From a virus: 42,524 nt of DNA. The position numbers were made by a program, and so were the translations under genes. This document shows, in pieces, positions 26,352 through 42,524 of this stretch (within the stretch, counting starts at the first letter, position 1; every line of letters begins with the position of its first letter). Under the pieces are notes generated by a model. It was given only the letters and a program-made list of their open reading frames with translations, made no database searches and was not told where the DNA came from. Location of the stretch: UHGV virus genome UHGV-0037043; one strand, written 5' to 3'.

Positions 26352-26380
26352 AGTATAACACCCCAATTAAGGGGTGTCAA
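26352..26380 (-). promoter_or_regulatory. Early promoter P6: TTGACA-ccccttaattggggtgt-TATACT, identical to P1 and P8.
   Basis: Direct reading. Confidence 0.7.
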
Positions 26381-26387
26381 CTGTTTT

Positions 26388-26522: not shown

Positions 26523-26535
26523 TTGCACCCTCCTC

Positions 26536-26688
26536 TTATTTTATTCTACGTAGATATAACTTAACCCATAGACCTAACCTAAACTTCTTGTCCGTTGAAT
26601 ATTCACGCTTCATTTTAATGTATTCACGTACGCTAGGTTCTAATGTGTTTGTTGGCTTCTTAAAGTATCCTTTATGTCTCTTTTTCAT
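26536..26688 (-). CDS. Small basic protein (50 aa), ATGA-coupled to the helicase stop.
   Basis: MKKRHKGYFKKPTNTL...LGLWVKLYL. Confidence 0.4.
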   Translation of the reverse strand: MKKRHKGYFKKPTNTLEPSVREYIKMKREYSTDKKFRLGLWVKLYLRRIK

Positions 26689-28016: not shown

Positions 28017-28443
28017 TATTCACGTTTCTAACATCTGTTTTTAAAAATCTAGCAGCCTCCGCCTGTGATTCAAAATATAAATCAGTATAATCTTTACTAA
28101 TCAAATATACTGGCACCTCACCACTAGTCTGATTAATTCTTTGTTCTTTATATGTTGCCCATCTTAAATTTTCAACCCTATTATCTAGTCTATCACGATT
28201 AATATGGTCTACTGTTGGTTTGTTTTCTGGGTTTGGTATGAACGCTTGTGCTACTAGACGATGAACTTTACATTTAGTAACTTTTGATTGTTTACTTAGT
28301 GATACATAATAATACTTATCTGTTCCAACGTATGGTGTAAGTAGTCTGTTATTTCTCATGACGTTTCCAGTACTACTTACCTGATAAAGTCCTTCATATC
28401 CTCCAACATCTTTCCAAATTTCTTTCATTATGCTACCTCCCAT
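27958..28443 (-). CDS. HNH_3/AP2-type homing endonuclease overlapping the helicase start.
   Basis: [20 protein letters not shown]...[13 protein letters not shown]...VDHINRDRLDNRVENLRW motifs. Confidence 0.7.
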   Translation of the reverse strand: MGGSIMKEIWKDVGGYEGLYQVSSTGNVMRNNRLLTPYVGTDKYYYVSLSKQSKVTKCKVHRLVAQAFIPNPENKPTVDHINRDRLDNRVENLRWATYKEQRINQTSGEVPVYLISKDYTDLYFESQAEAARFLKTDVRNVNSALHGYSKTTHGYEVEYGN

Positions 28444-28537
28444 TTATACCAAACCTGGAACATGTTTTCAACAACTTTGTCTGCAGCGTATACTTCTACA
28501 AACTGATAATCCAAGATTTTTGCTTTCATAATCCAAC

Positions 28538-28704
28538 TCATACTTCAACAACCTCCTTAATCTGTTCTAATTCTAAAATATTGTGTGCGTAGTTCACTGC
28601 ATCAAACAAACATGTTGCAGGTATTTTTATTTGACATTCCACTGTCTCATAATACTGTCCATTAGGTTTTTTCTTTTCATACGTAATCCCATACTCTTTA
28701 ATCA
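28538..28704 (-). CDS. Small protein (55 aa) coupled to the VRR-NUC stop. Start chosen at the internal ATG overlapping TAT-GAT-TAA.
   Basis: The longer track ORF 28538..28813 overlaps VRR-NUC by 115 nt in another frame. Confidence 0.3.
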
Positions 28705-29063
28705 TAATAAATTTCTCCAATCTCAATTTCTGGCAACTCTGGTTGTTTATATTGTCTTTCAACTCCATTTTCAATACAATATAATAAAACCATGAGTTCA
28801 TGAATATTGTCACGCAGAATCAATCCAAACCCACCTGCTTCACGTACTTTTTGTAAGTAACTGATTTGTAATGGGTCTGGTTGGTAGTTACCTACCTTCA
28901 ATTCTAAAGCAATGAAGAATCCTTTGTAGCAAACCAGTAAATCTGATACACCAACCTTAGAAAACATACTACCTGTTTGGTTATTAACGATTGCTCCTTT
29001 ACTCTCTAAATACTGTGTTACTTCTCTTGAAAATTGCGATTCTTTCATCATTCTCCCTCCCAA
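28698..29063 (-). CDS. VRR-NUC domain nuclease (PD-(D/E)xK).
   Basis: GVSDLLVCYKGFFIALELK core and ~120 aa size; common partner of phage SNF2 helicases. Confidence 0.6.
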   Translation of the reverse strand: MGGRMMKESQFSREVTQYLESKGAIVNNQTGSMFSKVGVSDLLVCYKGFFIALELKVGNYQPDPLQISYLQKVREAGGFGLILRDNIHELMVLLYCIENGVERQYKQPELPEIEIGEIYYD

Positions 29064-29263
29064 TTCATAATATTAGTTGTGATAGCATCTTCTAAATAGC
29101 GCTTTACACGTTGTGCCTCTTCCAGAGTTAGTTGCACAATAGAACAGTCGTTATCATTGTCTATTAATCTAAGATAAATATTATTATCATTGTCATACGT
29201 TGTAACACGAACTTGCTCATCATTTTCCGTTACTAGGTCGTTTCTGTAATTACTTTTCTCCAT
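29048..29263 (-). CDS. Hypothetical acidic protein.
   Basis: 71 aa. Confidence 0.4.
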   Translation of the reverse strand: MEKSNYRNDLVTENDEQVRVTTYDNDNNIYLRLIDNDNDCSIVQLTLEEAQRVKRYLEDAITTNIMNWEGE

Positions 29264-29386
29264 CTTAAAATCCTCCTTCTTCTAACCAGTTTAGGAACTT
29301 AGCTGCTCCAATTAGTGTTGCTCCAATAAATAATAGTGCTACTACTGCGAATGTCATTTTGTTTCCTCCTCTTAACTTATGAACTA

Positions 29387-29415
29387 AGTATAACATGTTC
29401 AGAGACCAGTGTCAA
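29387..29415 (-). promoter_or_regulatory. Early promoter P7: TTGACA-ctggtctctgaacatgt-TATACT. The spacer carries a GGTCTCTGAAC motif.
   Basis: Direct reading. Confidence 0.65.
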
Positions 29416-29582
29416 CTAATTTGTTACGATTAAACTAATCTTTTTTATTGTTGTTAGTGTAGTTGTAACTCCTGTTTACTTAGCGCACTTCCTCAACAAA
29501 TGCACCACATGTTGCTACTGCTGCTGCAAATGTTATGAACAGTTTTTCCATTTATTTTTCCTCCTCGTTATCTTATGTACTA

Positions 29583-29611
29583 AGTATAACACCCCAATTA
29601 AGGGGTGTCAA
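29583..29611 (-). promoter_or_regulatory. Early promoter P8: TTGACA-ccccttaattggggtgt-TATACT.
   Basis: Direct reading. It lies only ~170 bp upstream of P7, with a 23-aa hydrophobic mini-ORF between. Confidence 0.65.
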
Positions 29612-29975
29612 CTAGTTTTATAGTTTTTACCTTCCGTTGTTTATATTTTAATTTAATAAACGCATCTAACTTACGTTGAGCCTCAGTCGCATTTTTAATT
29701 AAATCACAGTAGATGAGTAACTCTTCATTTGTCAGTTCGTTTAGGTCAATTTCAGGAACTTTTTGTTCCTCTTCAGGAACTTTTTGTTCCTCCTTGAGTT
29801 TGAACTGCGTATTATTGCGATTCACATTTGTTTGTGTGTACCATTCACCATCATCATCAAATATACATAAACCATAATCATCACATCGTTTAACTTTATA
29901 CTCTTCACCTACAGTCCACCATGGTTCGTTTGACTCTGTACAAATATAAGTTTGTCCTGCTTTAAATGTTAACAT
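29598..29975 (-). CDS. ICT-PWWT family small protein with an internal 21-bp tandem duplication (EEQKVPE x2).
   Basis: MLTFKAGQTYICTESNEPWWTVGEEYKV. DNA repeat ttcaggaactttttgttcctc x2 at ~29758-29800. Confidence 0.55.
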   Translation of the reverse strand: MLTFKAGQTYICTESNEPWWTVGEEYKVKRCDDYGLCIFDDDGEWYTQTNVNRNNTQFKLKEEQKVPEEEQKVPEIDLNELTNEELLIYCDLIKNATEAQRKLDAFIKLKYKQRKVKTIKLVDTP

Positions 29976-30206
29976 TTATTTTACCTCCTCAATTACCCAA
30001 CTATTTAAGTTATCATATAAGAATGATGCGTCACGCATACCAACATATCCATAGACCCATAAGTAGTCTATAAGGTCTTCTTTAGAATAGCCTCTAAGGT
30101 TAGAATCAACATCATGCACAATATGTACACATTCTGTATTTACATAAAGTTCAATTTTATATTTTTTTTTTTTTTCATTTAGGTTCCTCCTATTGTAATG
30201 TGATTT

Positions 30207-30428
30207 TTAATTCCATTCATTTCTGGTTTCAACTAACATTGCAATTAGTGACGCATTTAATGATATCACGAGCGCTAATATTACAATTATTAGTGGCAAT
30301 GTTGTTAGTAATGAGTATTGTAGTATGTCAATAATTATTACAACAGCACCTACATCAAAACATACTAGAAAGAATATTAAACATGTAGCAAGTGTCTTTA
30401 ATATTTTATCTTCTTTGTTCACTTCCAT
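30207..30428 (-). CDS. Small membrane protein (2 TM).
   Basis: 73 aa, hydrophobic. Confidence 0.4.
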   Translation of the reverse strand: MEVNKEDKILKTLATCLIFFLVCFDVGAVVIIIDILQYSLLTTLPLIIVILALVISLNASLIAMLVETRNEWN

Positions 30429-30452
30429 TCCTCCTCTTATCTCTATGAATTA

Positions 30453-30481
30453 ATAATACCATGATAAAAAAAGAAAGTCAA
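30453..30481 (-). promoter_or_regulatory. Early promoter P9: TTGACT-17-TATTAT, with a second TTGACA 13 bp upstream.
   Basis: Minus strand TTGACAttatctgTTGACTttctttttttatcatggTATTATtaattcatagagataagaggagg. Confidence 0.5.
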
Positions 30482-30510
30482 CAGATAATGTCAACTTTCT
30501 TTCAAAAATA

Positions 30511-30894
30511 TTAAACTTTTTCTGATGTTGTGATTGAGACAATGTTGTTCACATTTAGCATCACTTGATATTTGTATGTTCCCATACCAATTAAGTCTTT
30601 TTCGTGTTCAATATACATGAATTGTTCTCCTGCACTTAAAGTATAGGAAAACTCGTTAATTAAATCGTCCTCAGTTTCTACTACGAATGGTTCTGTTGAA
30701 TTGGTTGTGTAAATTAAATATTTTTTCATTTCAGCCGCAAACTGAGGAACAACTACCTCCTGCTGTTCGTCTACTTGTTCAATCAATTGGATAGCTTTAC
30801 TAATTTTCACATATCTATCTTTTTCACCAGTATAAAATTCAGTACACCATGCACCATGTTCTTTTAACTTTTCTTTAATTTCCTCTTTATTCAT
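30511..30894 (-). CDS. Hypothetical protein.
   Basis: 127 aa. Confidence 0.45.
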   Translation of the reverse strand: MNKEEIKEKLKEHGAWCTEFYTGEKDRYVKISKAIQLIEQVDEQQEVVVPQFAAEMKKYLIYTTNSTEPFVVETEDDLINEFSYTLSAGEQFMYIEHEKDLIGMGTYKYQVMLNVNNIVSITTSEKV

Positions 30895-30895
30895 C

Positions 30896-31264
30896 TTATT
30901 CTTCCTCCTTTACCACTGGCACAGCAATCTTCCATAAGTTCTCGTCTGATGATTTTATTTCTTTTTCTGTTAAAAAGTAACGATACCCAAATACATCATC
31001 TACAGTTGTCAAAGTTGTACTGATTTCCTCGTTACCATCTCCCTCATCAACGACTAGATAGTACTTGCGGTCAAGATTAATTGTAACTGTGTACAACTGT
31101 TCTTTCCCATATTCTAACTCACTATTAATCGTCAATAAATTAGAAGCTAACTCTTGCATTTCATGAGACATGTTGTCATATCCATATCGTATAACCCATG
31201 CGTTAACACAATCTAGTAAATCAAGTACATTTCTTTTATTTAATGTTAATTTTTTTGTTTTCAT
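30896..31264 (-). CDS. Hypothetical protein.
   Basis: 122 aa. Confidence 0.45.
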   Translation of the reverse strand: MKTKKLTLNKRNVLDLLDCVNAWVIRYGYDNMSHEMQELASNLLTINSELEYGKEQLYTVTINLDRKYYLVVDEGDGNEEISTTLTTVDDVFGYRYFLTEKEIKSSDENLWKIAVPVVKEEE

Positions 31265-31265
31265 C

Positions 31266-31454
31266 TCATTCTTCCTCCTTTAATTTGAATTCAGCTGTTA
31301 GCTCATAGTCATATCCATACCATGCAAAATTTTCATCATCTACAATGCAAGGACGTTTTCCAGTTCTAAGTTGAGCCTTATATTCTTTACCTTCTGTCCA
31401 CCATGGTTCGTTTGACTCTGTACAAATATACGTGGCTCCTAATTCAATTTTCAT
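31266..31454 (-). CDS. ICT-PWWT family small protein. Start set at ATG 31454 after a GGAGGAAG RBS.
   Basis: MKIELGATYICTESNEPWWTEGKEYKA. Confidence 0.5.
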   Translation of the reverse strand: MKIELGATYICTESNEPWWTEGKEYKAQLRTGKRPCIVDDENFAWYGYDYELTAEFKLKEEE

Positions 31455-31455
31455 A

Positions 31456-33048
31456 TTATTCTTCCTCCACGTCATTGAAAATATTTACATATTCTGTTCC
31501 TGCTAATGCGTTCATTAAATATGGTTTGATTGCCTCATTGTCTCCATTACGTGCAATTTTTAGACCAGTTAGCACTCGTGCTTTGCTTGTTCGTTTTTCT
31601 TCAAAACCTTGTTTCAACAGTAATTCTTTCATTGTACGCCAGTTCATTGACTTGTTGATATTATTCTCTTTAGTGTACACATTAAAGATATTCTTCAATA
31701 ATGTGACGTTCACAGTGCCTTCTGCATCTTCCACAATCACAGGTACTTCACTCAAGAACTCTTTAGAAGGGTCATTTGACTCAACATAAGCTTTTTTGAA
31801 TGTGACCATTTCTGGTGTTTCTGTGAATGGATTTTCACCATTTGTACCAGCATCTAAAATCTTTTTGAATTGTTGAATACAGAACCATGCAAACTTACCT
31901 AGTTGTTCTTTAGACTCACGTTCTTCACGTTGTTTGTTGAACTCGTTAATACGTTCACGTGCTTCTGGTGTGTCTAGGTTTGTGTTGAAGTTCAAAATCA
32001 AAATACGTCTATACCACCCATTTGTGCGGTCGTTAAATGCAGGTAGTTCGTTCATTGAAAACATTAATTTTGCATAGTTGGTAAAACTAAAGGCATCTTT
32101 ACCTTTTTTCTCAGCGTGAATGGCATCTAATCCACCTGAAAGTTTTTTCAGTGTTTCAGTACCTTTTACAAAGTTTGCACTTGAGTCTGCCTCAAAGTTC
32201 AGCAACTTATGGTGTAATGAAGCTTTGTCAAAACGATTGTTTTTATCTGCCAAGCTGTCTAGACCAACAGCACTACTGTTTTCAAAACCAATTAATTTAC
32301 TCATAATGAAGCCACCCACGTAAGACTTACCATTTGACCCATTACCTAGTAAATAAAGTATTGATTGATATTTGTACTCTCTATAATACATGTAACCAAT
32401 GTACTCATATAGTGTTTGTGCTTGGTCTTTTAGTAGATAGTCAATCCATTGTTTAGCTAGTAATTCGTCTGTCTCATCTGTTTTAATCAATGGATATGGT
32501 AATTGCAATGTGTGATAGTCTTCTAACTTTGTCTCACGAATTTCATTTGTTCTAAAGTCATACGTCCCATTCTCAAACGCAATAATGTTTGGATTAGGAT
32601 TATCACCCAATGGAGCATTTTCTCCACGTGTCATAGAACGGTTAGCCAACTCAGGTGCTAATTTCTTCATCTCTCTACGAATTTCATTCCCAAACTCTGG
32701 ATTTCTGAATTGTGGTGTGAATTTTGGTGATAAGACGTTCTCAAAGTACCAATCTGAATACTTGTAACTACCTAGATTTACCTCAGACCAGATGCGTGTG
32801 TCTGCATTGTATACGTATGGTGCATTTAGGTTAGGGTGAGCGTACACATAAGCTAGTTGATTAAACTTTTCAATAAATAATTCCTGTTGAATTTCAAATT
32901 TAGCTTGTGTACCGTCTTTACCACCATAATACATTCTTCCTAAGTCTGAATTGAAGTCCACAAACTCCTCACTTGGAAAGTGTTTATTTGATACTGGTAG
33001 TAATTCCTCAACTGGTGCTGAATAGTCAATTTTTGTTAGTTCATTCAT
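31456..33048 (-). CDS. D5/P4-type primase-helicase (D5_N plus P-loop NTPase).
   Basis: Walker A GNGSNGKS, downstream Walker B-like hydrophobic-Asp region, and the C-terminal EEKRTSKARVLTGLK tail typical of this family. Confidence 0.65.
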   Translation of the reverse strand: MNELTKIDYSAPVEELLPVSNKHFPSEEFVDFNSDLGRMYYGGKDGTQAKFEIQQELFIEKFNQLAYVYAHPNLNAPYVYNADTRIWSEVNLGSYKYSDWYFENVLSPKFTPQFRNPEFGNEIRREMKKLAPELANRSMTRGENAPLGDNPNPNIIAFENGTYDFRTNEIRETKLEDYHTLQLPYPLIKTDETDELLAKQWIDYLLKDQAQTLYEYIGYMYYREYKYQSILYLLGNGSNGKSYVGGFIMSKLIGFENSSAVGLDSLADKNNRFDKASLHHKLLNFEADSSANFVKGTETLKKLSGGLDAIHAEKKGKDAFSFTNYAKLMFSMNELPAFNDRTNGWYRRILILNFNTNLDTPEARERINEFNKQREERESKEQLGKFAWFCIQQFKKILDAGTNGENPFTETPEMVTFKKAYVESNDPSKEFLSEVPVIVEDAEGTVNVTLLKNIFNVYTKENNINKSMNWRTMKELLLKQGFEEKRTSKARVLTGLKIARNGDNEAIKPYLMNALAGTEYVNIFNDVEEE

Positions 33049-33121
33049 TATTTTTTATTCCTCCCTCATCTGATATGTAGATAGTATAGCACAAATGAAA
33101 AGTTTGTGCTATACTTTTTGA

Positions 33122-33322
33122 CTAAAAATATTGTTTAATTGATTCTACTGAGTCTTTCACGCTTAATTGGGTGCCGTCTGATAGTATAACAATAGTGTAT
33201 TCCCAAGCCTTGTTGTAATAGAATGTTGCAATGTGATTAATGTTTACATACAGTTCTGTTTCGTCAACTCTTGTTAACGTAACTAATTCATTTAAGTTCA
33301 TTCTATTCATAATACACCTCAA
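33122..33322 (-). CDS. Hypothetical small protein (true start probably the MNRMN... ATG at 33310).
   Basis: 66 aa; overlaps the upstream small ORF's stop. Confidence 0.35.
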   Translation of the reverse strand: MRCIMNRMNLNELVTLTRVDETELYVNINHIATFYYNKAWEYTIVILSDGTQLSVKDSVESIKQYF

Positions 33323-33482
33323 ATTCTAACACTTGGTCTTTTTGAATATATGTTTTAATTTCATTAGTATCATCATCTAAAATTAAATAGCCTTCTTCAA
33401 AGTAATATTTATCAATATAATTATATTCAGTTACCTCTATACCTTCTCCACCATTATAATTTGTTACTACTACTTTAAGCAT
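33303..33482 (-). CDS. Small acidic protein (59 aa).
   Basis: ATG 33482 after GGAGGAATAAAAA. Product MLKVVVTNYNGGEGIEVTEYNYIDKYYFEEGYLILDDDTNEIKTYIQKDQVLEFEVYYE. Confidence 0.35.
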   Translation of the reverse strand: MLKVVVTNYNGGEGIEVTEYNYIDKYYFEEGYLILDDDTNEIKTYIQKDQVLEFEVYYE

Positions 33483-33526
33483 TTTTTATTCCTCCATTCT
33501 TATTTGTGTGATTGATTCTACTGTCT

Positions 33527-33709
33527 TTAAAATAATGTAGTCCATCCTAAAGCGAATACTGTACCAAACATAACTACACTAATAAATATTAGTATTACAG
33601 CATCTTCACCAATCATATTTTTTAGCAGTGCTATACCCATAAATAATATAATCATAACTACAAATATTAATATAGTTAGTAGTAAGCATTTTATAATTTT
33701 GACTATCAC
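33527..33709 (-). CDS. Small membrane protein (2 TM).
   Basis: 60 aa, hydrophobic. Confidence 0.4.
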   Translation of the reverse strand: MIVKIIKCLLLTILIFVVMIILFMGIALLKNMIGEDAVILIFISVVMFGTVFALGWTTLF

Positions 33710-33737
33710 TTTTATTCCTCCTTTTATCTATGAGTTA

Positions 33738-33766
33738 AGTATAGCATGTTCAGAGACCGTCGTCAA
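33738..33766 (-). promoter_or_regulatory. Early promoter P10: TTGACG-acggtctctgaacatgc-TATACT. The spacer carries GGTCTCTGAAC.
   Basis: Direct reading. Confidence 0.6.
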
Positions 33767-33769
33767 GGT

Positions 33770-34090
33770 TTATTTTGCGAAGTAACCCATTAGGTATGCT
33801 AAGCGTTGAGAATCGTTATCAAATTTCTGATGTACTTTAGCGATTTGTTTGTTAACCTCTTCTTTGGTGTACATGATTTCAACATCATGTTTGATTGGTT
33901 CTGACTCTTTTAATGTGAAATAAGTTGCTAAACCACGTAGTAACCACTCATTCCAGTAAGTACCATTATTATCTTGTAGTGCTAATTTCCCACTTGAATC
34001 AACAACTACTGGATACTCTCTTCCTACACTCCACCATAAATAATCAGCTTTTGTACAAATATAAGTTTGTCCTTCTTTTAGTTTTAACAT
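33770..34090 (-). CDS. ICT-PWWT family small protein.
   Basis: MLKLKEGQTYICTKADYLWWSVGREYPV. Confidence 0.5.
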   Translation of the reverse strand: MLKLKEGQTYICTKADYLWWSVGREYPVVVDSSGKLALQDNNGTYWNEWLLRGLATYFTLKESEPIKHDVEIMYTKEEVNKQIAKVHQKFDNDSQRLAYLMGYFAK

Positions 34091-34092
34091 TT

Positions 34093-34383
34093 TTACTCCT
34101 CCTTAATTTGAATGCCTGTTATGAAGAAACCATCTGTGAATCGTTTCTTTTCTACATTGTAACATTGCATTATGTTGTTGTCAATAGTTTTTATTCCTCC
34201 TCTATTGGCGATTGCGATTTCTTGAATTACTTTTTTATACTCTGATAATTTTACTTTGTCTTTTTTGTTTCCTGTGATTATTACTCTATTATATAGTAGC
34301 TTTTGTTCAATGTCAAGTGTTTTTAACCACTCTTCGTATTGGTGCATGATTTCATATGGTTCTCCTGTAAATGTGACTTGCAT
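34093..34383 (-). CDS. Hypothetical protein, paralogue of 34387..34704 (N-terminal MxVxFTGxP...EEWL).
   Basis: MQVTFTGEPYEIMHQYEEWL compared with MKVIFTGTPQQIKKEMEQWL. Confidence 0.45.
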   Translation of the reverse strand: MQVTFTGEPYEIMHQYEEWLKTLDIEQKLLYNRVIITGNKKDKVKLSEYKKVIQEIAIANRGGIKTIDNNIMQCYNVEKKRFTDGFFITGIQIKEE

Positions 34384-34386
34384 ACT

Positions 34387-34704
34387 TTAGTCCTCCTTAA
34401 TTAGTTTTAGATTGGTTAAAATACGAAATTTGTTTGTCCGTTTTTCCTTTACACCACAGCTTTGTAGTTCCTGTTTAAATACTTTCCACTCATGACCGTC
34501 TAGTTGACACGTTTGCTTAACAAAACGTATTGGTAATACATCCTTCTCGTTTTGTGTTAACGTAATGTGATGTTGACTTAGTTTTGTTGATACGTTGTTG
34601 AGTGACTCCTGTTTATTTAATTCAGTTTTTAATTGATTATCAGTCAACCATTGTTCCATCTCTTTTTTAATTTGTTGTGGTGTGCCAGTAAATATTACTT
34701 TCAT
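34387..34704 (-). CDS. Hypothetical protein. Its C-terminal EKRTNKFRILTNLK resembles the C-terminus of the D5-like primase-helicase.
   Basis: 105 aa; first gene behind the origin-proximal promoter P11. Confidence 0.45.
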   Translation of the reverse strand: MKVIFTGTPQQIKKEMEQWLTDNQLKTELNKQESLNNVSTKLSQHHITLTQNEKDVLPIRFVKQTCQLDGHEWKVFKQELQSCGVKEKRTNKFRILTNLKLIKED

Positions 34705-34765: not shown

Positions 34766-35280
34766 ATTTTGTTGAGATTTTATCAGAATGACGAATTGAA
34801 CCATGTATGACAGAAAATCAATGACATTTGATGATCGCTCTAACCCTTGATACACTTGAGTTTCTAGAGACCAATGACATTTGGGATTTTTAAGGAATGC
34901 TGTAATATCAACGTTTAGAGACCATGTGCTGTTAAAAATGTCAAACGACCTATATATGATTTATATTACTACATTATGATGTAATAACTATTTATATATA
35001 CTTATATATAGAATGTCAGAATGTCAATAACGTAGTAAAAGCCTTGGGAGAGTAAGGAGACAGCGATTTTCAATTCGTCATTCGTTTGACATTCACTAAG
35101 CCAAACTAGTTACTGTTATTGATATTAAAGCATTTGGCTAATGACAAACTCTGTCATTCTTAAAAACACAACTTTTTGAATCTGTTATTTAATTAATAAA
35201 GCCAACTGGTTTACCCAATACTCAACACATAATCCCTCATCTATGATATAATTAGTACATAGGATAAAGGAGGAGATAAT
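34766..35280. other. Divergent intergenic control region / putative origin of replication.
   Basis: 515-bp ORF-free stretch at the strand switch. 15-bp perfect inverted repeat gaatgacgaattgaa (34786-34800) / ttcaattcgtcattc (35069-35083); iterated aatgacatttg and (a/t)gagacca(a)tg motifs; AT-rich core 34960-35030. Confidence 0.5.
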
Positions 35281-35469
35281 ATGAAGGATATCTTAAACTC
35301 AATTATTGAAGCAGTCTTAATAGTGGCTCTATTGATTGGTTATGGATATATTGCAATCTATCTAGGAATGAAACTACCATATCAATTATGGATTAATGGA
35401 GACTGGGGTTTTGCAATTGCGCAGGCAGTCATTGTGTGGACCTGGTTGTTAGGAGGTAAACGTAAATGA
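35281..35469 (+). CDS. Small membrane protein ending ...WTWLLGGKRK.
   Basis: 62 aa; RBS AAGGAGGAG; ATGA overlap with the next ORF. Confidence 0.45.
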   Translation: MKDILNSIIEAVLIVALLIGYGYIAIYLGMKLPYQLWINGDWGFAIAQAVIVWTWLLGGKRK

Positions 35470-35597
35470 AAGAAACACTAATTACTGTGTTGATTATTCT
35501 GCTAACGTTTATGGTCATCATTGGTTACGTAGGAATTACTCCATTATTAGGACTACTCATTGTGTGGAGCTGGTTATTAGGAGGCAAACGTAAATGA
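35466..35597 (+). CDS. Small membrane protein (43 aa), paralogue of 35281..35469 (ends ...WSWLLGGKRK).
   Basis: ATGA-coupled at both ends. Confidence 0.4.
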   Translation: MKETLITVLIILLTFMVIIGYVGITPLLGLLIVWSWLLGGKRK

Positions 35598-35767
35598 AAA
35601 AACTAAGTGATAAACAATTACTACAACTAACAAAGACTGAGTTGTTAGAAGAATATCGTAAGTTAGAGGAAACTAAGACTAACAATGATATCTCACTCAA
35701 TGAAGCTATTACTATTGTAAAGAACAATGGTTATGTGGTCAAACCAAAGACATCATATGACTTTTAA
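35594..35767 (+). CDS. Small hydrophilic protein (57 aa).
   Basis: MKKLSDKQLLQLTKTELLEEYRKLEE... in the coupled chain. Confidence 0.4.
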   Translation: MKKLSDKQLLQLTKTELLEEYRKLEETKTNNDISLNEAITIVKNNGYVVKPKTSYDF

Positions 35768-35779
35768 GGAGGATAAAGT

Positions 35780-35965
35780 ATGGACTTATCTAATGTATCC
35801 AGTGACGAGCTGTTAGAAATAGCAGACAATGTAACACGTCTCAAAAACTTAAAGGATGCTATCAAAGAGTATGAAGTATATTATATGCAAGTCAACGAAG
35901 ACTATGCACGTGTAATAAATGAGATTACAGACCTAGAACGTAAACTAAAGGAGGTGGGATTATAA
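35780..35965 (+). CDS. Small acidic protein.
   Basis: 61 aa; RBS AAGGAGGA. Confidence 0.45.
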   Translation: MDLSNVSSDELLEIADNVTRLKNLKDAIKEYEVYYMQVNEDYARVINEITDLERKLKEVGL

Positions 35966-36147
35966 TGCCATTCATGCCATGTAAACACGCTGATTGCAAC
36001 GAGACAGTACAAGTACCTAACAAGTATTGCTATAAGCATACACCTAAGAAAGCAGCAGTTAAGTTAGATGAGTTAGTAAGTACACAAGTGGAAGAGGTTA
36101 AGAGTCTTAACACTAAGTCTAATAAAACAAAGAAGACTACTAAATAA
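35965..36147 (+). CDS. Zinc-ribbon protein, paralogous to the N-terminus of the cos-linked HNH.
   Basis: MPFMPCKHADCNETVQVPNKYCYKHTP compared with MPQRICAEPTCRARVDIPERYCEQHRG. Confidence 0.4.
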   Translation: MPFMPCKHADCNETVQVPNKYCYKHTPKKAAVKLDELVSTQVEEVKSLNTKSNKTKKTTK

Positions 36148-36180
36148 TAGTAGTCTTTTCTTATAGAAAGGATTGATAGT

Positions 36181-36570
36181 ATGCCACAAAGAATATGTGC
36201 TGAACCAACATGTAGAGCAAGAGTAGATATTCCAGAAAGATATTGTGAACAACACAGAGGTCACTCAGATAAGCAGTACAATAAACATGTGAGGACTAAT
36301 GACTTCAATAAGAAGTACAATGACTTCTATCACAGTAGTCAATGGACTAAGACTCGTAAGGCTAAGCTTATGGAGCAACCACTATGCGAGGTATGCTTGG
36401 CACAAGGACGTATGACCAAGGCTGATATGGTGCATCACATCATTGAGTTAAGAAGTCCAAACGGATGGGAACACAGATTAGATATGAATAATTTAGAATC
36501 AATCTGTTATCCTTGTCACAACAAAGAGACTCACAGATACAGTTGGAAGAATGGTGGTAGAAATTTTTAA
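36181..36570 (+). CDS. HNH endonuclease (terminase-associated, cos-type).
   Basis: Zinc ribbon plus HNH core (...VHHIIELR...N...CYPCHNKETH), immediately upstream of the cos-like region and terS. Confidence 0.75.
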   Translation: MPQRICAEPTCRARVDIPERYCEQHRGHSDKQYNKHVRTNDFNKKYNDFYHSSQWTKTRKAKLMEQPLCEVCLAQGRMTKADMVHHIIELRSPNGWEHRLDMNNLESICYPCHNKETHRYSWKNGGRNF

Positions 36571-36844
36571 GCCAGCCATAAAATATTTTCTGACCAGCGC
36601 TAAAAATATTTTACCCCCCTACCTTTTTTACTCAGCCTAATCGCTGATGACTCTTCTTCACACGAATTTCTAAAAATGAACTTTCAAAAACGCCCTTTTC
36701 CCCTCGTAAACGTGATTTAAACCTGGTTTCTTGTGTTGAAAATCAAGACTTACCACTATATGTAGTATGTTATTTCTCTTATACGATTGTTCCCTTAGTA
36801 AACACGATTGACCCCTGGTTTCTCAACACAGTCTTTTGGAAGTA
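36571..36844. other. Putative cos / terminase-recognition region.
   Basis: Non-coding; direct repeats ccagcCATaaaatatttt / ccagcGCTaaaaatatttt (36573-36612); C-rich tacccccctacc (36611-36623); repeats gtaaacRYGATTnAnCCCTGGTTTCT (36706-36743 and 36798-36834). Lies between the HNH and terS, as in cos phages. Confidence 0.4.
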
Positions 36845-36853
36845 TGATATAAT
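36845..36853 (+). promoter_or_regulatory. Extended -10 promoter TGATATAAT upstream of 36911/HNH/terS.
   Basis: Direct reading. Confidence 0.4.
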
Positions 36854-36910
36854 AAACACTATAGGGGAGATGCGCTTAAGTGTCAACAATAAAGTAAGGG
36901 AGGTAGAAAA

Positions 36911-37096
36911 ATGCCAGCACCAAAACCAGTCTTAGTTAAAGATTTGTCAACTGGGCAAACGAGAAAATTCAAGTCACAATTTGCCGCAGACGAATTTTAT
37001 GGAAAGAAACGTGGATATTTTAAAGACGTTAAAACGAAACTTGGCGGTCGCAATCGTTCTTTTGAAATTACAGAAGCACCTAAGGAGGAAAAATAA
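36911..37096 (+). CDS. Small basic protein.
   Basis: 61 aa; RBS AAGGGAGG. Confidence 0.45.
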   Translation: MPAPKPVLVKDLSTGQTRKFKSQFAADEFYGKKRGYFKDVKTKLGGRNRSFEITEAPKEEK

Positions 37097-37426
37097 ATGG
37101 CAGAACAGTGGAAGACAATTCCAGGGTATCCTAATTATAAAGTTTCAACAAACGGTCGTGTATTAGCTACAGACGGTATAAAACAAACACAAATTAAACC
37201 GTATGAGAAAGACCATGGGTACTTATGTGTAGACTTATATAAGAATGGTCAACGCACAGGTAAGAGAGTTCATGTGTTAGTGGCTGAAGCGTTTCTTGGT
37301 GGTAAAAAAGACGGATTTACTGTAGACCATAAAGACCGCAATAGACATAATAATAAGGTGTCAAATCTCGTTTGGTCAAGTGTATCAGACCAGAACAAAA
37401 ACAGAACATCATGGGCTAAGGAGTGA
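37097..37426 (+). CDS. HNH_3/AP2-type homing endonuclease.
   Basis: WKTIPGYPNYKVSTNGRV...VHVLVAEAF...VDHKDRNRHNNKVSNLVW motifs. Confidence 0.7.
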   Translation: MAEQWKTIPGYPNYKVSTNGRVLATDGIKQTQIKPYEKDHGYLCVDLYKNGQRTGKRVHVLVAEAFLGGKKDGFTVDHKDRNRHNNKVSNLVWSSVSDQNKNRTSWAKE

Positions 37427-37430
37427 TAAA

Positions 37431-37895
37431 ATGGCAAGACCAAGGAAATTACTAAACGCACAGAGCGGAAACTTAACAGTTGAACAACGTGAAGAGCGTG
37501 AGAAAGAGGAGGAAGTTTTATATAACTACGATAAATTAGATTTTAGTTTTTATCCGCCAGGATTACTACCACAAGCGTTCAACGAGTGGGATAGAATTGG
37601 CGCATACGTTGGAGACCTCCCCATCTCAGAACTAGACGTTAACACTGTAATTAGATATTGCAACTATAATTATCTATATGGTGAAGCAACTGAACGAGTA
37701 GCACAAGAAGGTGCGGTGGATATGGAAACAGGTAAAGCAAATCCTTGGGTTGCTGCAATGAACTCATATTCTAAAGAACTAAAATCTGCAACAAATGATT
37801 TAGGGTTAACAATCAACTCAAGGTTAAAAATTGTTTTACCATCAGAAAAAGAAAAAGAAGTAATTGACCCATTGGCAAAAATGTTTGAGGGATAA
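37431..37895 (+). CDS. terS: Terminase small subunit (P27 family). Start at ATG 37431 after an AAGGAG RBS.
   Basis: MARPRKLLNAQSGNLTVEQ...; ~155 aa; upstream of terL. Confidence 0.7.
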   Translation: MARPRKLLNAQSGNLTVEQREEREKEEEVLYNYDKLDFSFYPPGLLPQAFNEWDRIGAYVGDLPISELDVNTVIRYCNYNYLYGEATERVAQEGAVDMETGKANPWVAAMNSYSKELKSATNDLGLTINSRLKIVLPSEKEKEVIDPLAKMFEG

Positions 37896-37917
37896 GCTAC
37901 ACAAACTAAGAATTTTG

Positions 37918-37926
37918 TGTTATAAT
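37918..37926 (+). promoter_or_regulatory. Extended -10 promoter TGTGTTATAAT, 20 nt after the terS stop.
   Basis: Direct reading. Confidence 0.45.
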
Positions 37927-37933
37927 ATATTCA

Positions 37934-38531
37934 AGCGAGTATGGGGGCGCCTCTTAACAATGCGTACCACCCCATGCCAATAAACTTAATATTGGAATTG
38001 GGGCGTATTTCTTCGGATTGCGCTTGTCCTACAGCATGCTTGTTGTAGGATATACATAGTGGGTGGCATCTAAGACACCTCTTGTGACACCGCAAGCAAG
38101 AGTATGCCAAAACGTGTGGGTACACTCGCACTGTGACGGAGTTGGAAACCTTAACCGTCAGCGGTAAAGTTTCAGGGTAATAGTCATTACTTTAAAACCT
38201 GTAAAGGTAGTTGCGACCCAGTGACTGAGAGCACGCATGCAGCTCTGCAAAGCAACAACATTGGCTATCTAGTCATAGCCCTGATACCTGATCTGTCCCC
38301 ATTGGACACAGTAAGGGAGATTCTGTATTACAGTGGAACGCCACCACTTTAAAAAAGGTTCCGTGTACGGCACACGTAAACGACCGTTCGCTATGGTATC
38401 TAGCGTATGCGTGATAGTATGACCCTCTTTGACGACAAGCACGACAAATGCAGTTAGCCACATAACAGAGGGCGTGGAAACCTGCAGATACTAACCTCCC
38501 ACTAGTCTAGCTAACTAGTGGGTCTTTTTTT
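37934..38531 (+). ncRNA. Candidate large structured non-coding RNA (~600 nt), class unassigned (ROOL/GOLLD-like?).
   Basis: GC ~48-50% against ~33% in the flanks. No RBS-preceded ORF on either strand. Has its own promoter and a perfect-stem terminator. Multiple local helices. Confidence 0.45.
38498..38531 (+). terminator. Intrinsic terminator closing the GC-rich unit.
   Basis: cccactagt-ctagctaa-actagtggg: perfect 9-bp stem, then TCTTTTTTT. Confidence 0.8.
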
Positions 38532-38532
38532 A

Positions 38533-38541
38533 TGCTATAAT
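38533..38541 (+). promoter_or_regulatory. Extended -10 promoter TTTTTTATGCTATAAT for terL.
   Basis: Direct reading, followed by AAAAGGAGGA RBS and the ATG at 38574. Confidence 0.5.
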
Positions 38542-38573
38542 ATACTTGACTAGCAGAAAAGGAGGATACATAT

Positions 38574-40349
38574 ATGTTTGACCCAGTACAAGATTATGTA
38601 GATTTAATTGAAAAAGGATATGTAGAAGGTAGGAAATACATTGTTGAAGATGGCAAATATAAGACAATTAAAGTTGATGTTCGTGTAGGAACAAAAATTA
38701 AAAAGGCTATTGAACGCCACCAACGAGAAGTTGAATTATCTAAAACACCAGAGTATCCATATATTTATAGACCAGAAGAATCACTTCCAGTCATTAGATT
38801 TATGGAAATGCTACCTGACCCAAAAAGTCGTAAACCAATGAAGTTAGCTACCTTCCAAAAATTCATCATTGGGTTACTATATGGTTGGCGTAAAAAGAGA
38901 GATAATACTAGACGTTTTAGAAAGGCATATATCTCACTAGCACGTAAGAACGGTAAATCACTACTGGTTTCAGGAATCGCACTATATGAGTTTCTATTTG
39001 GTAAAAACCCAGCAGCCAGCCGTCAAGTTGTTGCTGCAGCAAATACTAAGGAGCAAGCAGGTATTGTTTTTAGAATGCTCAAATCTCAGCTAACAGCACT
39101 ACGTAGCGTTTCAAAAGAAGTTAAGAAAAGAACCACTGTTCGCAGATATGATATTGAAGCTAGTGATGAGTCAACAGTTAAACCACTATCAAGTGACGCT
39201 GACACACTAGACGGACTAGACGTGTTATGTGGCATTTTAGATGAATATGGCGAAGCGAAAGACACTGCTATTATTGAAGTATTAGAATCATCACAAGCCC
39301 AACAATTAGAAGGTTTAATTTTAATGATATCTACAGCTACCAAAAACCTAAATGGACCAATGTACACAATAGATTATCAATTTGTTGATAAGCTACTCAA
39401 CGAAGAAGTCAAAGGAGATGCGTATCTTGCATTATGTTGGGAGATGGATAGTCTATCAGAAGTAGATGATGAAGCTAACTGGATAAAAGCAAACCCTTTA
39501 CTGGAAATACCAGAAGCGTATGAGTCAATGATGGAACATAAACGCAACTCACTTGATGAATATAAAGGTAAAATGGACTTATCAGGATGGTTAACAAAAG
39601 AAGAAAATTTCTGGGTTCAATCATCTAAAGATAGTTTTGTAACCAAGGAAGAGTGGGATGCAATTAAAGCACCAAAGAAATACGATATTAAAGGACGTAA
39701 AGTATACATTGGCTTAGACATCGCTAGAACATCAGACATGACTGCCGTCTCATGGATTATCCCTATTGAAGAAGAGCACAAACTACTACTGGACACGCAT
39801 GGTTTCGTATCATCAGTTGGTGGTATAGACCATAAACAAGCTATTGACAAAATACCATATAGACAATATGAGTCAATGAACCTCATTCATATTTCTCAAC
39901 GTGAGGACGGCTTAATTGATACAGAAGAAATGTGTGATTGGATAAGAGACTTTATAGATTACAACGAGTTACAGTTAATTGGTATTTATTATGACCCATT
40001 CATGATGGATAAAGCGTTAATTAATTTAAGTAAAACGTATCCTAAAAAACTAATTGAAGTACCTCAGAAAATTAACTATTTATCATCACCAACAAGAGCG
40101 TTACGTGAGCTCATTCGCAGAGATGAAGTTATTCACACAAATAACCCTTTGTTAAATCGTGCAGCCTACAACGCAATGATTAAAGAGTATAATGACAGTG
40201 TGGCAATAGATAAAGGTATGAATAGGAACAAAATTGACCCTATTGATGCTGTGATAAATGCCATGAGTGATGCTCAATATCATGATTTTGACGCACCAAC
40301 ATTGCAAGATTTACTTGATAGTGGAGAATTTGGCTTTGGGTATGCTTAA
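38574..40349 (+). CDS. terL: Terminase large subunit.
   Basis: 591 aa; Walker A-like LARKNGKS; Terminase_1-like layout with a C-terminal nuclease region. Confidence 0.85.
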   Translation: MFDPVQDYVDLIEKGYVEGRKYIVEDGKYKTIKVDVRVGTKIKKAIERHQREVELSKTPEYPYIYRPEESLPVIRFMEMLPDPKSRKPMKLATFQKFIIGLLYGWRKKRDNTRRFRKAYISLARKNGKSLLVSGIALYEFLFGKNPAASRQVVAAANTKEQAGIVFRMLKSQLTALRSVSKEVKKRTTVRRYDIEASDESTVKPLSSDADTLDGLDVLCGILDEYGEAKDTAIIEVLESSQAQQLEGLILMISTATKNLNGPMYTIDYQFVDKLLNEEVKGDAYLALCWEMDSLSEVDDEANWIKANPLLEIPEAYESMMEHKRNSLDEYKGKMDLSGWLTKEENFWVQSSKDSFVTKEEWDAIKAPKKYDIKGRKVYIGLDIARTSDMTAVSWIIPIEEEHKLLLDTHGFVSSVGGIDHKQAIDKIPYRQYESMNLIHISQREDGLIDTEEMCDWIRDFIDYNELQLIGIYYDPFMMDKALINLSKTYPKKLIEVPQKINYLSSPTRALRELIRRDEVIHTNNPLLNRAAYNAMIKEYNDSVAIDKGMNRNKIDPIDAVINAMSDAQYHDFDAPTLQDLLDSGEFGFGYA

Positions 40350-40419
40350 TAAGCATACCCTTTTTGCTAATATTTGTGTTAAAATAGAGATAGAAATATC
40401 GCAAAAGGAGCGTGAAAAC

Positions 40420-40593
40420 ATGAAATTTGTTGCGGTTATTGTAGCTGTTTTATATATAATTAGCATGGTATTTATTGCTTTAGCTGCTTTTTTAGTATCA
40501 AACACACTTGGTTTACTCACATGTGGCTTAGGATTCATGATTCCATCAATCGTGCTATACTATGAAGCCACAAAATCAGAGGAAAGGGGGTAA
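40420..40593 (+). CDS. Small 2-TM membrane protein between terL and the portal gene.
   Basis: MKFVAVIVAVLYIISMVFIALAAFLVSN... after RBS AAAAGGAGCG. The longer track ORF 40267.. overlaps the terL 3' end. Confidence 0.4.
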   Translation: MKFVAVIVAVLYIISMVFIALAAFLVSNTLGLLTCGLGFMIPSIVLYYEATKSEERG

Positions 40594-40599
40594 TAATTA

Positions 40600-41799
40600 A
40601 TGGGATTATTTATAAACAATGGTACACCAGTTACAGAACAACAGTTCATAGACTATATTAATACGGGTACAGTATATAGTACCAATTTCACAGGGCTAAA
40701 AGCTTTGGCAAACTCAGATATTTACACAGGTGTGAATATTATAGCTGGTGATATTGCACAAAGTCCATTCAAACCAATTAACAACAGTACTGTAGATGAA
40801 TCGCTGTTGACATTATTAAACAAAGAACCGAAAACTAATCAATCACACTACACTATGATGTATGCAGTAGTGTCAAACTTAATTTTAACTGGTAATGCCT
40901 ACATTTTAATTCATAGAAACGATGATAAGTCAGTTAAAGAGTTAGAATTTGTGGAAACACAACAAGTTAACGTCATTAGAGACCTTATTACAGGTGAGTA
41001 TAGGTATGAAGTTAATATGCCGTATGGTAATATCATGTATAAATGCACTCCAAACGATATATTACATTTCAAATTAACAACCACTGATGGGTGGCTAGGT
41101 CGCTCTCCATTACTAGCATTAAATGAAGAGATAGCACTACAAACTAATGGTTTGAAAGTACTTAACAACTTCTTTTCAAAAGGTGTATTCTCAGGTGGTA
41201 TTCTTAAACTATTGAACGGTACTGTAAACAACCAAACAAAAGCAAAAATTAGAGAAGACTTTGAAAAAGTAAACGGTGCTGGAGGAACGATTGTTCTTGA
41301 TGACACCCAAGACTTTACGGAAAACAAAATAAACACAGAAGTATTGAAACTAATCCAAGCAAATAAATTTAGTACACAACAAATTGCTAAAGTTTTAGGT
41401 ATTCCAGTAAATAGATTTGGACAAGAACTAGTGAACTCATCTGATACAGGTCAGAATGATATTTACATTGCTAGCACAATAGCTATGTATGAATCATCTA
41501 TCTGTGATGAGATAAACCTAAAATTAGGAGTAGAGTTAGAGTTAGACTTATCTAAATTACGTCAAGACACTAAAGAAGATAGACTGCGTAGAATTGCAGA
41601 AGGTAAAGTTAAGTCTGAGTTTGCACAAGCATTGACAGTTAACGATGCACGCACCTACCTTGGCTTCCAAGAGATTGATGGCGGACAACAGTTATTAGGT
41701 CAAATGAAAAATAATACAACAAATACAAATGAACAGGATGTGAAAGTGAATGACGAAGAACATGGAGATACGAGCACTACAGACACTGGAGAAGAGTGA
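40600..41799 (+). CDS. Portal protein (HK97 family).
   Basis: 399 aa in the position and with the pattern of an HK97-type portal; acidic C-terminal tail. Confidence 0.8.
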   Translation: MGLFINNGTPVTEQQFIDYINTGTVYSTNFTGLKALANSDIYTGVNIIAGDIAQSPFKPINNSTVDESLLTLLNKEPKTNQSHYTMMYAVVSNLILTGNAYILIHRNDDKSVKELEFVETQQVNVIRDLITGEYRYEVNMPYGNIMYKCTPNDILHFKLTTTDGWLGRSPLLALNEEIALQTNGLKVLNNFFSKGVFSGGILKLLNGTVNNQTKAKIREDFEKVNGAGGTIVLDDTQDFTENKINTEVLKLIQANKFSTQQIAKVLGIPVNRFGQELVNSSDTGQNDIYIASTIAMYESSICDEINLKLGVELELDLSKLRQDTKEDRLRRIAEGKVKSEFAQALTVNDARTYLGFQEIDGGQQLLGQMKNNTTNTNEQDVKVNDEEHGDTSTTDTGEE

Positions 41800-41806
41800 G
41801 GATAAT

Positions 41807-42301
41807 GTGGTAGAGGGGTACGCCTTAAAGTTTAACAAAGAATCACGTGACTTAGGTGGATTTGTTGAAACTATTGCACCAGATGCACTAGATGGTGTAG
41901 ATTTGACAGATGTACGTTGTTTCTTAAACCATGACTCTACCAAACTATTAGGGCGCACCTCAAGTGGTACTTTGGAGTTAAATGTGGATGATATTGGACT
42001 ACATTTCAGATGCACACTACCTAACACAAGTACTGGGCGTGATGCTATGGAGTTAGTAAAACGTGGAGATTTAAACCAATGCTCCTTTGGTTTCACAGTA
42101 GCAAACCACAAATGGACAAAAGATGATGGAATTATGAAACGCTCAATTAATAAAATTAAATCTTTACTAGAGATTTCATTAGTATCAATTCCAGCATATG
42201 ATGATACAGATGTTCGTGTTGCTACACGTTCATTAGAAGAAGTAGTCAACGAATTAGAAAAAGAGCAATTAGAGATTGAATTGGAGTTGTTGGGCTTGTG
42301 A
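41807..42301 (+). CDS. Prohead protease (HK97/U35 family). GTG start assumed; the alternative ATG 41750 overlaps the portal.
   Basis: VVEGYALKFN...RDLGGFVETIAP...FLNHD...LGRTSSG matches the HK97 prohead protease signature. Confidence 0.75.
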   Translation: MVEGYALKFNKESRDLGGFVETIAPDALDGVDLTDVRCFLNHDSTKLLGRTSSGTLELNVDDIGLHFRCTLPNTSTGRDAMELVKRGDLNQCSFGFTVANHKWTKDDGIMKRSINKIKSLLEISLVSIPAYDDTDVRVATRSLEEVVNELEKEQLEIELELLGL

Positions 42302-42328
42302 TTTACAGCCCACAACCTCAATTATGTG

Positions 42329-42337
42329 TGATATAAT
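42329..42337 (+). promoter_or_regulatory. Extended -10 promoter TGTGATATAAT upstream of the delta-domain/capsid gene.
   Basis: Direct reading. Confidence 0.4.
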
Positions 42338-42370
42338 TAAAACAGAAAGCTAGTGAAGGAGTGAGATTAC

Positions 42371-42524
42371 TTGAATCGTGAAGAACAGATTAAAAAAGCA
42401 CAAGACTTATTATCAGATGGTAAATTTGAAGAGGCTCGCAGTTTAGTTGAAGCTATTAAGAAACATGATGCTGAACAAGAACCAGAAGTTAAAGAACCAG
42501 AAGTTAAAGAACCAGAAGTTAAAG
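42371..42524 (+). CDS. 5' segment of the capsid gene: N-terminal delta/scaffolding-like domain (TTG start after AAGGAG RBS). It continues in frame across the circular junction into 1..1055.
   Basis: Open frame LNREEQIKKAQDLLSDGKFEEARSLVEAIKKHDAEQ(EPEVK)n has no stop before the window end. Codon phase (42524,1,2)=GAA joins exactly to the frame of the ATG at 117. It lies directly downstream of the prohead protease, as HK97-type delta domains do. Confidence 0.55.
   Translation, partial: MNREEQIKKAQDLLSDGKFEEARSLVEAIKKHDAEQEPEVKEPEVKEPEVK
42479..42524 (+). repeat. 15-bp tandem repeat GAACCAGAAGTTAAA (encodes EPEVK), 3 copies at the window end; contiguous with the copies at 1..77.
   Basis: Direct reading. 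The repeat spans the assembly junction, so true copy number is uncertain. Confidence 0.9.

Follow-up and report, generated by a model that had tools for sequence, protein, structure and literature searches.

Are the two ends of the UHGV virus genome UHGV-0037043, a stretch of 42,524 nucleotides that was analyzed at its full length and is referred to as the window, parts of one major capsid gene, and what kind of protein would such a gene encode? At the right-hand end of the window an open reading frame (ORF) that begins with a TTG codon runs out into a short tandem repeat encoding EPEVK, and at the left-hand end the same repeat leads into a capsid gene for which an ATG at position 117 offers itself as a start. 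The initial annotation had put forward two solutions, a single capsid protein with an HK97-style delta domain fused to its N-terminus or a nested pair consisting of the fusion and a stand-alone major capsid protein. As read from the sequence, both ends are the two halves of one gene, and the split solely reflects the opening of the circular genome within the repeat.

The reading frame across the circular junction

The ORF stays open from TTG 42371 to the end of the window, with no stop codon up to position 42524, and translation of the joined ends bears out that it re-enters at base 1, in register with ATG 117. The 5' stretch comprises 154 nt, such that a new codon begins with base 42524, and the joined frame leads from base 1 via ATG 117 (codon M91) to a TAA at 1053-1055, giving 402 codons if the ends abut. 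Other assemblies contain the two parts in one piece. ENA scaffold_913 from ERZ28618280 (42,535 bp) matches the window with 100.000% identity on both sides of the repeat (3171 nt on the left, 3767 nt on the right) and crosses the window junction contiguously and in frame. One end of this scaffold coincides with window position 29581 and the other lies at about 29651 by offset arithmetic only; its terminal overlap of about 71 nt, and hence the k-mer size, was likewise computed from offsets only. The window and scaffold_913 each span the break of the other, as a circular or concatemeric map predicts.

A tblastn search of phage records with the full-length protein yielded matches in Enterococcus phages. 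Capsid identity amounts to 96% for vB_EhiS_268, 95% for DELF1 and Bp29, 83-87% for IME-EFm1, IME-EFm5, Aramis, dArtagnan and the KEN and EF36P phages, and about 55% for Efquatrovirus. The record of vB_EhiS_268 is collinear with the window through the junction: window positions 35203-42524 correspond to 144-7316 of the record and window positions 1-25000 to 7302-31482. In all 12 records inspected, an uninterrupted ORF of 393-415 residues is annotated as capsid protein and is preceded by the same or a very similar ribosome-binding site and started by the same TTG. The window stems from a lytic siphophage of Enterococcus that has vB_EhiS_268, DELF1 and Bp29 as relatives. These three (CAD0299662.1 in the case of vB_EhiS_268) have the TTG start, the ribosome-binding site, the order of portal, protease and capsid genes and an EPEVK array at the same position in common with the window. 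They differ from it in that genome-wide nucleotide identity reaches only some 90%, over some 70% of the length, and in the array itself, which has seven units in vB_EhiS_268 and five plus one DPEVK in DELF1 and Bp29 compared to eight in the window as abutted.

The contiguous ORF in cultured relatives and in the assembly with identical flanks, together with family assignment and gene order, supports the proposal of an HK97-style delta-domain capsid protein of about 402 residues that extends over the circular junction. PF05065 (Phage_capsid) matches residues 137-391 with an E-value of 2.5e-28 and 99.7 bits (cut-off 24.2), TIGR01554 (‘major_cap_HK97’) residues 22-391 with 184.4 bits (cut-off 27.5) and PHROG_10 (‘major head protein’) residues 4-400. 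An AlphaFold2 model was calculated for the 382-residue allele P0003, which has four repeat units, on the basis of a 98-sequence alignment. It has a mean pLDDT of 81.5, with values above 90 in the core, and a Foldseek search with this model returned the gene transfer agent capsid 6tb9 (E 1e-17), HK97 (1ohg, E 3e-15) and other capsids within about 1e-15 to 1e-17.

The genes are arranged in the order large terminase (TerL), portal, protease and, after a gap of 69 nt, capsid (Table 1), and the relatives exhibit the same sequence of portal, protease and capsid genes. A separate scaffold gene is absent between the portal and protease genes and the capsid gene. Judged by the predicted gene products, this arrangement is the HK97 layout. 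The gene product is thus very probably a major capsid protein of the HK97 family that carries the scaffolding function in its own N-terminal region. The observation holds but is an ordinary one: another HK97-family capsid protein with a fused scaffold.

Table 1. Features of the capsid locus in the window (a slash between two residues marks a putatively cleaved bond)
Feature	Position (nt)	Strand	Evidence or remark
Large terminase (TerL) gene	38574-40349		
Portal protein gene	40600-41799	+	PF04860, E 2e-51
HK97-type prohead protease gene	41750-42301	+	PF04586, E 2e-52; TIGR01543, 116.5 bits; public gene calls on identical contigs start at 41762
Ribosome-binding site AAGGAG	42356-42361	+	9 nt before TTG 42371; site and TTG kept in 12 related phage records
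Major capsid gene, 5' part (codons 1-51 and first base of codon 52)	42371-42524	+	In one piece with the 3' part in ENA scaffold_913 and in relatives
N-terminal helical hairpin of the scaffolding (delta) region, codons 1-36	42371-42478	+	AlphaFold2 helices 3-15 and 19-36, pLDDT >90
EPEVK units 1-3 and first base of unit 4	42479-42524	+	Periodic tract from 42477
EPEVK, rest of unit 4 to unit 8	1-74	+	Periodic tract to 77; model pLDDT <50
Major capsid gene, 3' part (rest of codon 52 to codon 402 and TAA)	1-1055	+	PF05065, TIGR01554, predicted HK97 fold
Conserved block EEKRSLEPKGEEKNMEKVVLDGKE (residues 77-100)	75-146	+	In all relatives including Efquatrovirus at 55% identity; holds candidate site R80/S81
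Candidate cleavage site R80/S81	84-89	+	Inferred
Shine-Dalgarno-like AAAAGGAG (98-105) and in-frame ATG 117-119 (M91)	98-119	+	Candidate start; GGAG from Gly-Glu codons
Candidate maturation site R125/A126	219-224	+	Positional equivalent of HK97 K103/S104; hhalign offset extrapolated; inferred only
HK97-fold core (residues 137-391)	255-1019	+	PF05065; pLDDT >80 from about residue 141; Foldseek HK97 1ohg
Terminator-like hairpin after the capsid gene	1069-1100	+	Terminator annotated at the same place in phage 9184

The fused scaffolding region and its processing

Ahead of the capsid fold, three segments can be distinguished, a helical hairpin, a spacer and a conserved block. For codons 2-33, ratios of nonsynonymous to synonymous differences per site (pN/pS) of 0.06-0.16 were obtained at pS values of 0.5-0.6 in comparison with four relatives. 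Together with the conservation of the frame in the relatives these values indicate that the N-terminus is translated, and they point to purifying selection on the hairpin (residues 1-36). Ungapped pN/pS is invalid where indels shift the register, as is the case for the core versus IME-EFm1 and for the middle segment and the core versus phage 9184; the values used were those for the N-terminus plus those for L008 and L010.

The frame is kept in all of 130 close relatives, though the region between AIKKHD and EKRSLE ranges from 14 to 65 residues. Over the relatives, the spacer consists of 38% E, 22% K, 8% P and 8% D and has a median length of 47 residues, most spacers falling between 42 and 53; the EPEVK spacer with eight units would amount to 44. 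In most relatives it is non-repetitive, while some contain other short repeats. The group of IME-EFm1, IME-EFm5, Aramis and dArtagnan as well as Efquatrovirus have the hairpin, the position of the spacer and the EKRSLE...NMEKV block in common with the window, and their spacers are mostly non-repetitive or contain different short repeats such as three copies of PEDKKE (KEN21) or EPKEE motifs (Efquatrovirus). The spacer thus appears to be conserved in composition and approximate length, not in sequence. The block that follows it is strongly conserved (EKRSLE-x2-GEE-x-NMEKVVLDGKE). In the model of P0003, pLDDT is below 50 in the whole spacer and in most of what follows as far as about residue 120, corresponding to about residue 140 in window numbering, and a weak helix is predicted at window residues 106-117.

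A first point of reference is HK97, in which a scaffold domain of 103 residues is cut off at K103/S104; its residues 2-66 form coiled coils in trimeric towers, residues 66-76 a flexible spacer and residues 76-103 a helix-turn-strand element under the capsomer (PMC10275583). The protein described here resembles HK97 gp5 in family and fold, in the HK97-type protease gene located directly upstream, in the absence of a separate scaffold gene, in an N-terminal extension that starts with helices and in a basic residue at the equivalent of K103/S104. Overall sequence identity is about 17%. When the family alignment was compared by hhalign with an HK97 gp5 sequence that is 100% identical to PDB 3qpr_A, window residues in the core corresponded to the HK97 residue number plus 24, which places HK97 S104 at about window residues 126-128, an offset extrapolated beyond the aligned core. 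Some 125 residues precede this position, and an N-terminal extension of about 100-130 residues is expected of a fused delta domain. The coiled coil of HK97 spans about 65 residues and its spacer about 10; the protein described here has instead a 36-residue hairpin and a spacer of some 45 residues that is acidic and disordered. In a weak hhalign alignment (probability 79%), K169 of the HK97 crosslink is paired with Asn and N356 with Ile, such that chainmail crosslinking of the HK97 type is not predicted; the K169-N356 isopeptide crosslink is a feature of HK97 itself and not of the whole family.

A second point of comparison is gp33 of Staphylococcus phage phi12, which like the window protein comprises 402 residues, carries a fused delta domain (residues 1-128) and lacks a separate scaffold gene. 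The delta domain of the phi12 capsid protein is cut off at R128/L129, that is after a basic P1 residue, and the protease has been called herpesvirus-like (PMC8569155). The phi12 record lists it as ‘scaffolding protease’ with a ‘clp protease’ note. Near the cleavage site, which is actual in phi12 and putative here, both proteins have an A-L-P-x-G motif after a basic P1 residue. The phi12 head differs in being prolate. Transfer of the phi12 cleavage site by alignment was dropped as the proteins lack similarity, and the local R..ALP.G likeness alone remains. Many homologues of 500-760 residues (P0158, P0164, P0187, P0198 and others) have the capsid domain at their C-terminus and are probably fusions of prohead protease and capsid protein (compare NF045541), which would be a different way to link assembly functions to the capsid protein.

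On the basis of these comparisons, residues 1-36 may constitute the oligomerizing tip of the scaffold, and residues 37-76, here the tandem EPEVK, would form a disordered, strongly acidic E/P/K spacer that serves as a long flexible tether and, at about 45 residues, could replace much of the reach of the HK97 coiled coil. Residues 77-125 would represent a conserved, shell-proximal part under the capsomer, after which the HK97 fold begins. By analogy to HK97 and phi12, the adjacent prohead protease would remove the N-terminal region after assembly of the procapsid, cutting either after R125 or after R80. The context of R125/A126 (...KMDLR/ALPEG) is locally similar to that of the phi12 site (...EAQR/LLHALPTG), and cleavage would leave a product of 277 residues and 30.36 kDa. 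That of R80/S81 (EEKR/SLE) is reminiscent of FNK/SLG in HK97, and the product would have 322 residues and 35.57 kDa. As a speculation, the lysine present in each repeat unit would allow a protease with a preference for basic P1 residues to chop the spacer into small peptides.

Indirect information on processing is available from SHEF2, an Efquatrovirus, the virions of which contain a capsid band of 36 kDa confirmed by mass spectrometry (PMC6803325). For Efquatrovirus Ef5.3/TexasRanger the calculated masses are 44.7-47.2 kDa for the full-length protein, 34.4-34.5 kDa for the form cleaved at KR/S, 33.4-33.5 kDa for a form starting at the methionine and 30.0 kDa for the form cleaved at R/ALP. The SHEF2 band therefore indirectly suggests, when set against 44.7-47.2 kDa, that the N-terminus is absent from virions, and it leans towards the more upstream site; acidic proteins often migrate slowly on gels. 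A literature search retrieved no N-terminal or intact-mass data for this capsid clade.

Several points weigh against a scaffold fused in the manner of HK97. Within the N-terminal region a confident helix is predicted only for residues 1-36, with low confidence for residues 37-140, and likeness to the HK97 delta domain is partial. Only the core aligns to HK97 by hhalign, with the 79% probability given above, and the phi12 capsid protein has no detectable similarity (BLASTP E above 1). The role of the spacer as a flexible tether, as well as cleavage and the cleavage site, are proposals drawn from the known systems. Furthermore, the candidate sites are in conflict with each other, the HK97 position favoring R125/A126 and the SHEF2 band fitting better to KR/S or to a start at the M91 equivalent.

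The internal start codon ATG 117

The SHEF2 band is also compatible with a start at the internal methionine and leads to the question whether the capsid gene harbors a second, nested gene. Ribosomes would then additionally start at ATG 117 and produce a capsid protein of 312 residues (34.5 kDa) that lacks hairpin and spacer and co-assembles with the full-length form. We consider this unlikely. It is true that an SD-like GGAG is present 8-11 nt before an in-frame ATG and that both are kept in all relatives, including Efquatrovirus at 55% identity. The sequence in question reads GGA GAA GAA nnn AAT ATG in all relatives and GGA GAC/GAA GAA AAC ATG in Efquatrovirus, and encodes G-E/D-E-(x)-N-M. 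The GGAG is thus GGA-GAA of a conserved G-E-E peptide, and the protein sequence accounts for its conservation. Moreover, the spacing of 11 nt between GGAG and ATG 117 is longer than usual, and GGAG precedes 11 of the 235 internal in-frame ATG codons of the genome at a distance of 5-13 nt.

At conserved positions, codons are more often identical within residues 77-100 than in the core (0.84 versus 0.67, and 0.79 versus 0.60 when distant relatives alone are considered), values that stem from sequences which are not independent of each other. E and K codons account for most of this increase: 26 of 28 are identical, compared to 55 of 66 in the core. With this Glu/Lys bias as a partial explanation of the increase, a weak hint of constraint at the nucleotide level is left around the internal ATG (residues 77-100, nt 75-146).

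The position of M91 does not match the start of the mature fold either, as the HK97-cleavage equivalent lies at about residue 126. Public ‘proteins’ of 311 and 312 residues (P0122 and P0126) start exactly at the M91 equivalent and are probably calls on contigs broken at the repeat; in fact, the ORF listing made for the window produces the same M91 start as these two entries, which belong to the same 90% cluster. A protease and a fused scaffold suffice for a shortened protein in virions. A stand-alone capsid protein from ATG 117, as suggested by the initial annotation, is therefore not supported in the form proposed: M91 is located about 35 residues upstream of the HK97-cleavage equivalent and the SD-like motif is made up of codons for the conserved Gly-Glu-Glu. 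With a single fused capsid protein, a separate product from ATG 117 is unnecessary.

The EPEVK array, its copy number and its surroundings

The perfect 15-bp unit GAACCAGAAGTTAAA, which encodes EPEVK, is present in three copies at the end of the window and in five at its start, resulting in eight units if the ends abut. Tandem Repeats Finder reported 5.1 copies with a period of 15 for positions 1-77 (100% match, score 154) and 3.2 copies for positions 42477-42524 (100% match, score 96). Abutted, the two arrays give a perfectly periodic tract of 125 nt, far beyond what is expected by chance. Whether 15, 30 or 45 nt are compared, the window ends with exactly the sequence with which it begins. 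An untrimmed overlap of the ends is therefore possible, and the window by itself fits five, six, seven or eight units.

The suspicion that the copy number may be an assembly artefact proved justified: identical flanks are combined with four units in one assembly and with eight in the other, and further contigs also break inside the repeat. Among proteins that are at least 90% identical, two units are present in P0123, four in P0003, which is encoded on scaffold_913 with flanks identical to those of the window, six in DELF1 and Bp29 (five EPEVK, the last unit being DPEVK), seven in vB_EhiS_268, nine imperfect ones in P0001 on a MEGAHIT k141 contig and eleven in P0124 (seven EPEVK and four EPEIK). 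The MEGAHIT contig ERZ27287550 k141_216736 (42,530 bp), 99.98% identical to the window with one mismatch over the 6.4 kb compared, begins at window position 20, ends 25 nt past the window end and was therefore also opened within the repeat. Its start is offset by 19 nt and it is 6 nt longer overall, which limits its end overlap to 6, 21, 36 or 51 nt and the array to eight, seven, six or five units, respectively. The window looks like this contig or a sibling assembly that was closed with the minimal overlap of 6 nt and re-opened 25 nt upstream. A Logan contig from a relative with 96% identity likewise begins inside the repeat.

The chance that an arbitrary linearization point falls into a tract of 125 nt in a genome of 42.5 kb is about 0.3%, which argues for a break caused by the repeat itself. 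Short-read assemblers appear to break or collapse at the repeat, hence the apparent opening of the genome at this point. Upon collapse in a de Bruijn graph, a periodic tract of 15n + 5 nt would shrink to the shortest length of this form not below k. By our arithmetic, the minima would be 65 nt or four units at k = 55, 110 nt or seven units at k = 99 and 125 nt or eight units at k = 119, and several of the reported unit counts may be such assembler minima. The count of eight units is not reliable. Two observations suggest that the true number is near or above eight: spacers in the family cluster at 42-53 residues, with eight units corresponding to 44 and nine to 49, and the arrays that assemble unambiguously due to unit variants have nine and eleven units. 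Two and four units give 14 and 24 residues, and no shorter spacers than these two were observed.

GenBank records of relatives already contain the EPEVK array, where it went unremarked, and a literature search found no paper that mentions the repeat. Exact pattern scans of the IMG/VR viral_contigs with the left flank plus repeat and with three repeat units gave no match. With respect to the spacers of similar length and composition that relatives hold in non-repetitive form, the repeat is a slippage-prone microsatellite version of the same element.

A more far-reaching idea is that the acidic spacer acts as a naturally length-variable tether. Capsid proteins that otherwise share at least 90% identity would then exist in real alleles with two to eleven units, and spacer length, or a second product starting at M91, would tune scaffold reach or the stoichiometry of scaffold and shell and with it assembly fidelity or capsid size. 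We regard this as rather improbable. Even less probable is an elastic element of the titin PEVK type with a specific mechanical role and a copy number tuned adaptively as a contingency locus. The segment has a high content of P, E, V and K, a predicted disorder and a unit number that varies between proteins with at least 90% identity, and the designation ‘PEVK-like’ holds in this compositional sense. It does not hold in the sense of homology: in a search of Pfam at E-values up to 0.01, no family besides capsid families was matched and none in the EPEVK region. Titin PPAK repeats comprise about 28 residues, unlike the unit of only five residues in the window, and the non-repetitive E/K/P-rich sequences of similar length in the relatives argue for a generic spacer. 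In addition, much of the apparent variation in copy number could result from assembly collapse, as four, seven and eight units are the very minima listed above. The possibility that the junction is not real, that the 5' ORF encodes a separate small scaffold protein and the unresolved repeat conceals a stop codon or frameshift, with ATG 117 as the start of the capsid protein, draws on the fact that continuity is invisible in the window itself, the ends of which overlap by up to 45 nt, and is effectively refuted on sequence grounds, since the assembly with 100% identical flanks is contiguous and in frame over the repeat, other assemblies crossing it with two to eleven units are likewise in frame and the frame is kept with each possible end overlap (0, 15, 30 or 45 nt).

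Some further observations concern the surroundings of the locus. Following the terminator-like hairpin, a perfect 12/12 sigma-70 consensus (TTGACA, 17 nt, TATAAT) is located at 1103-1131 on the minus strand, oriented antisense into the 3' end of the capsid gene; by a rough estimate, about 0.1 sites of this kind are expected by chance in the window. The site is found in exact form in vB_EhiS_268, DELF1, dArtagnan, Aramis, EF36P1, IME-EFm5 and metagenomic relatives and is absent from the corresponding loci of IME-EFm1, KEN21, SSBHU, LG62, KEN18, 9184 and Efquatrovirus. Other perfect tandem duplications reside at 29751-29792 (two copies of 21 bp) and 23001-23030 (two copies of 15 bp), and the ends of scaffold_913 (about 29581-29651) lie in the vicinity of the 21-bp repeat without falling on it. 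From 14951 to 34704, a region that also includes a 422-residue ORF at 14951-16219, genes for replication and early functions are all encoded on the minus strand, opposite to the structural genes. Annotations of relatives list genes for a family-B DNA polymerase, a primase, a helicase and a GIY-YIG endonuclease in this region, and public gene calls include an HNH/NUMOD4 endonuclease. The relatives are described as lytic. A putative cos-end sequence of IME-EFm5, TCATCACCG, had no exact match in the window, no confirming paper was found and it was dropped.

A perfect 15-bp microsatellite within a capsid gene causes short-read assemblers to break or collapse the genome at this point, and on contigs broken there gene callers can produce a truncated capsid protein that starts at an internal methionine, which is probably the source of the public entries of 311 and 312 residues. 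Repeat counts in public records should therefore not be taken at face value. Biologically, the point is a modest one: in a fused scaffold of the HK97 type, constraint on the spacer that links the helical tip to the shell-proximal part concerns length and charge and not sequence, and such a spacer can be rebuilt by slippage. Engineered repeat numbers could serve to probe how the reach of the scaffold affects assembly.

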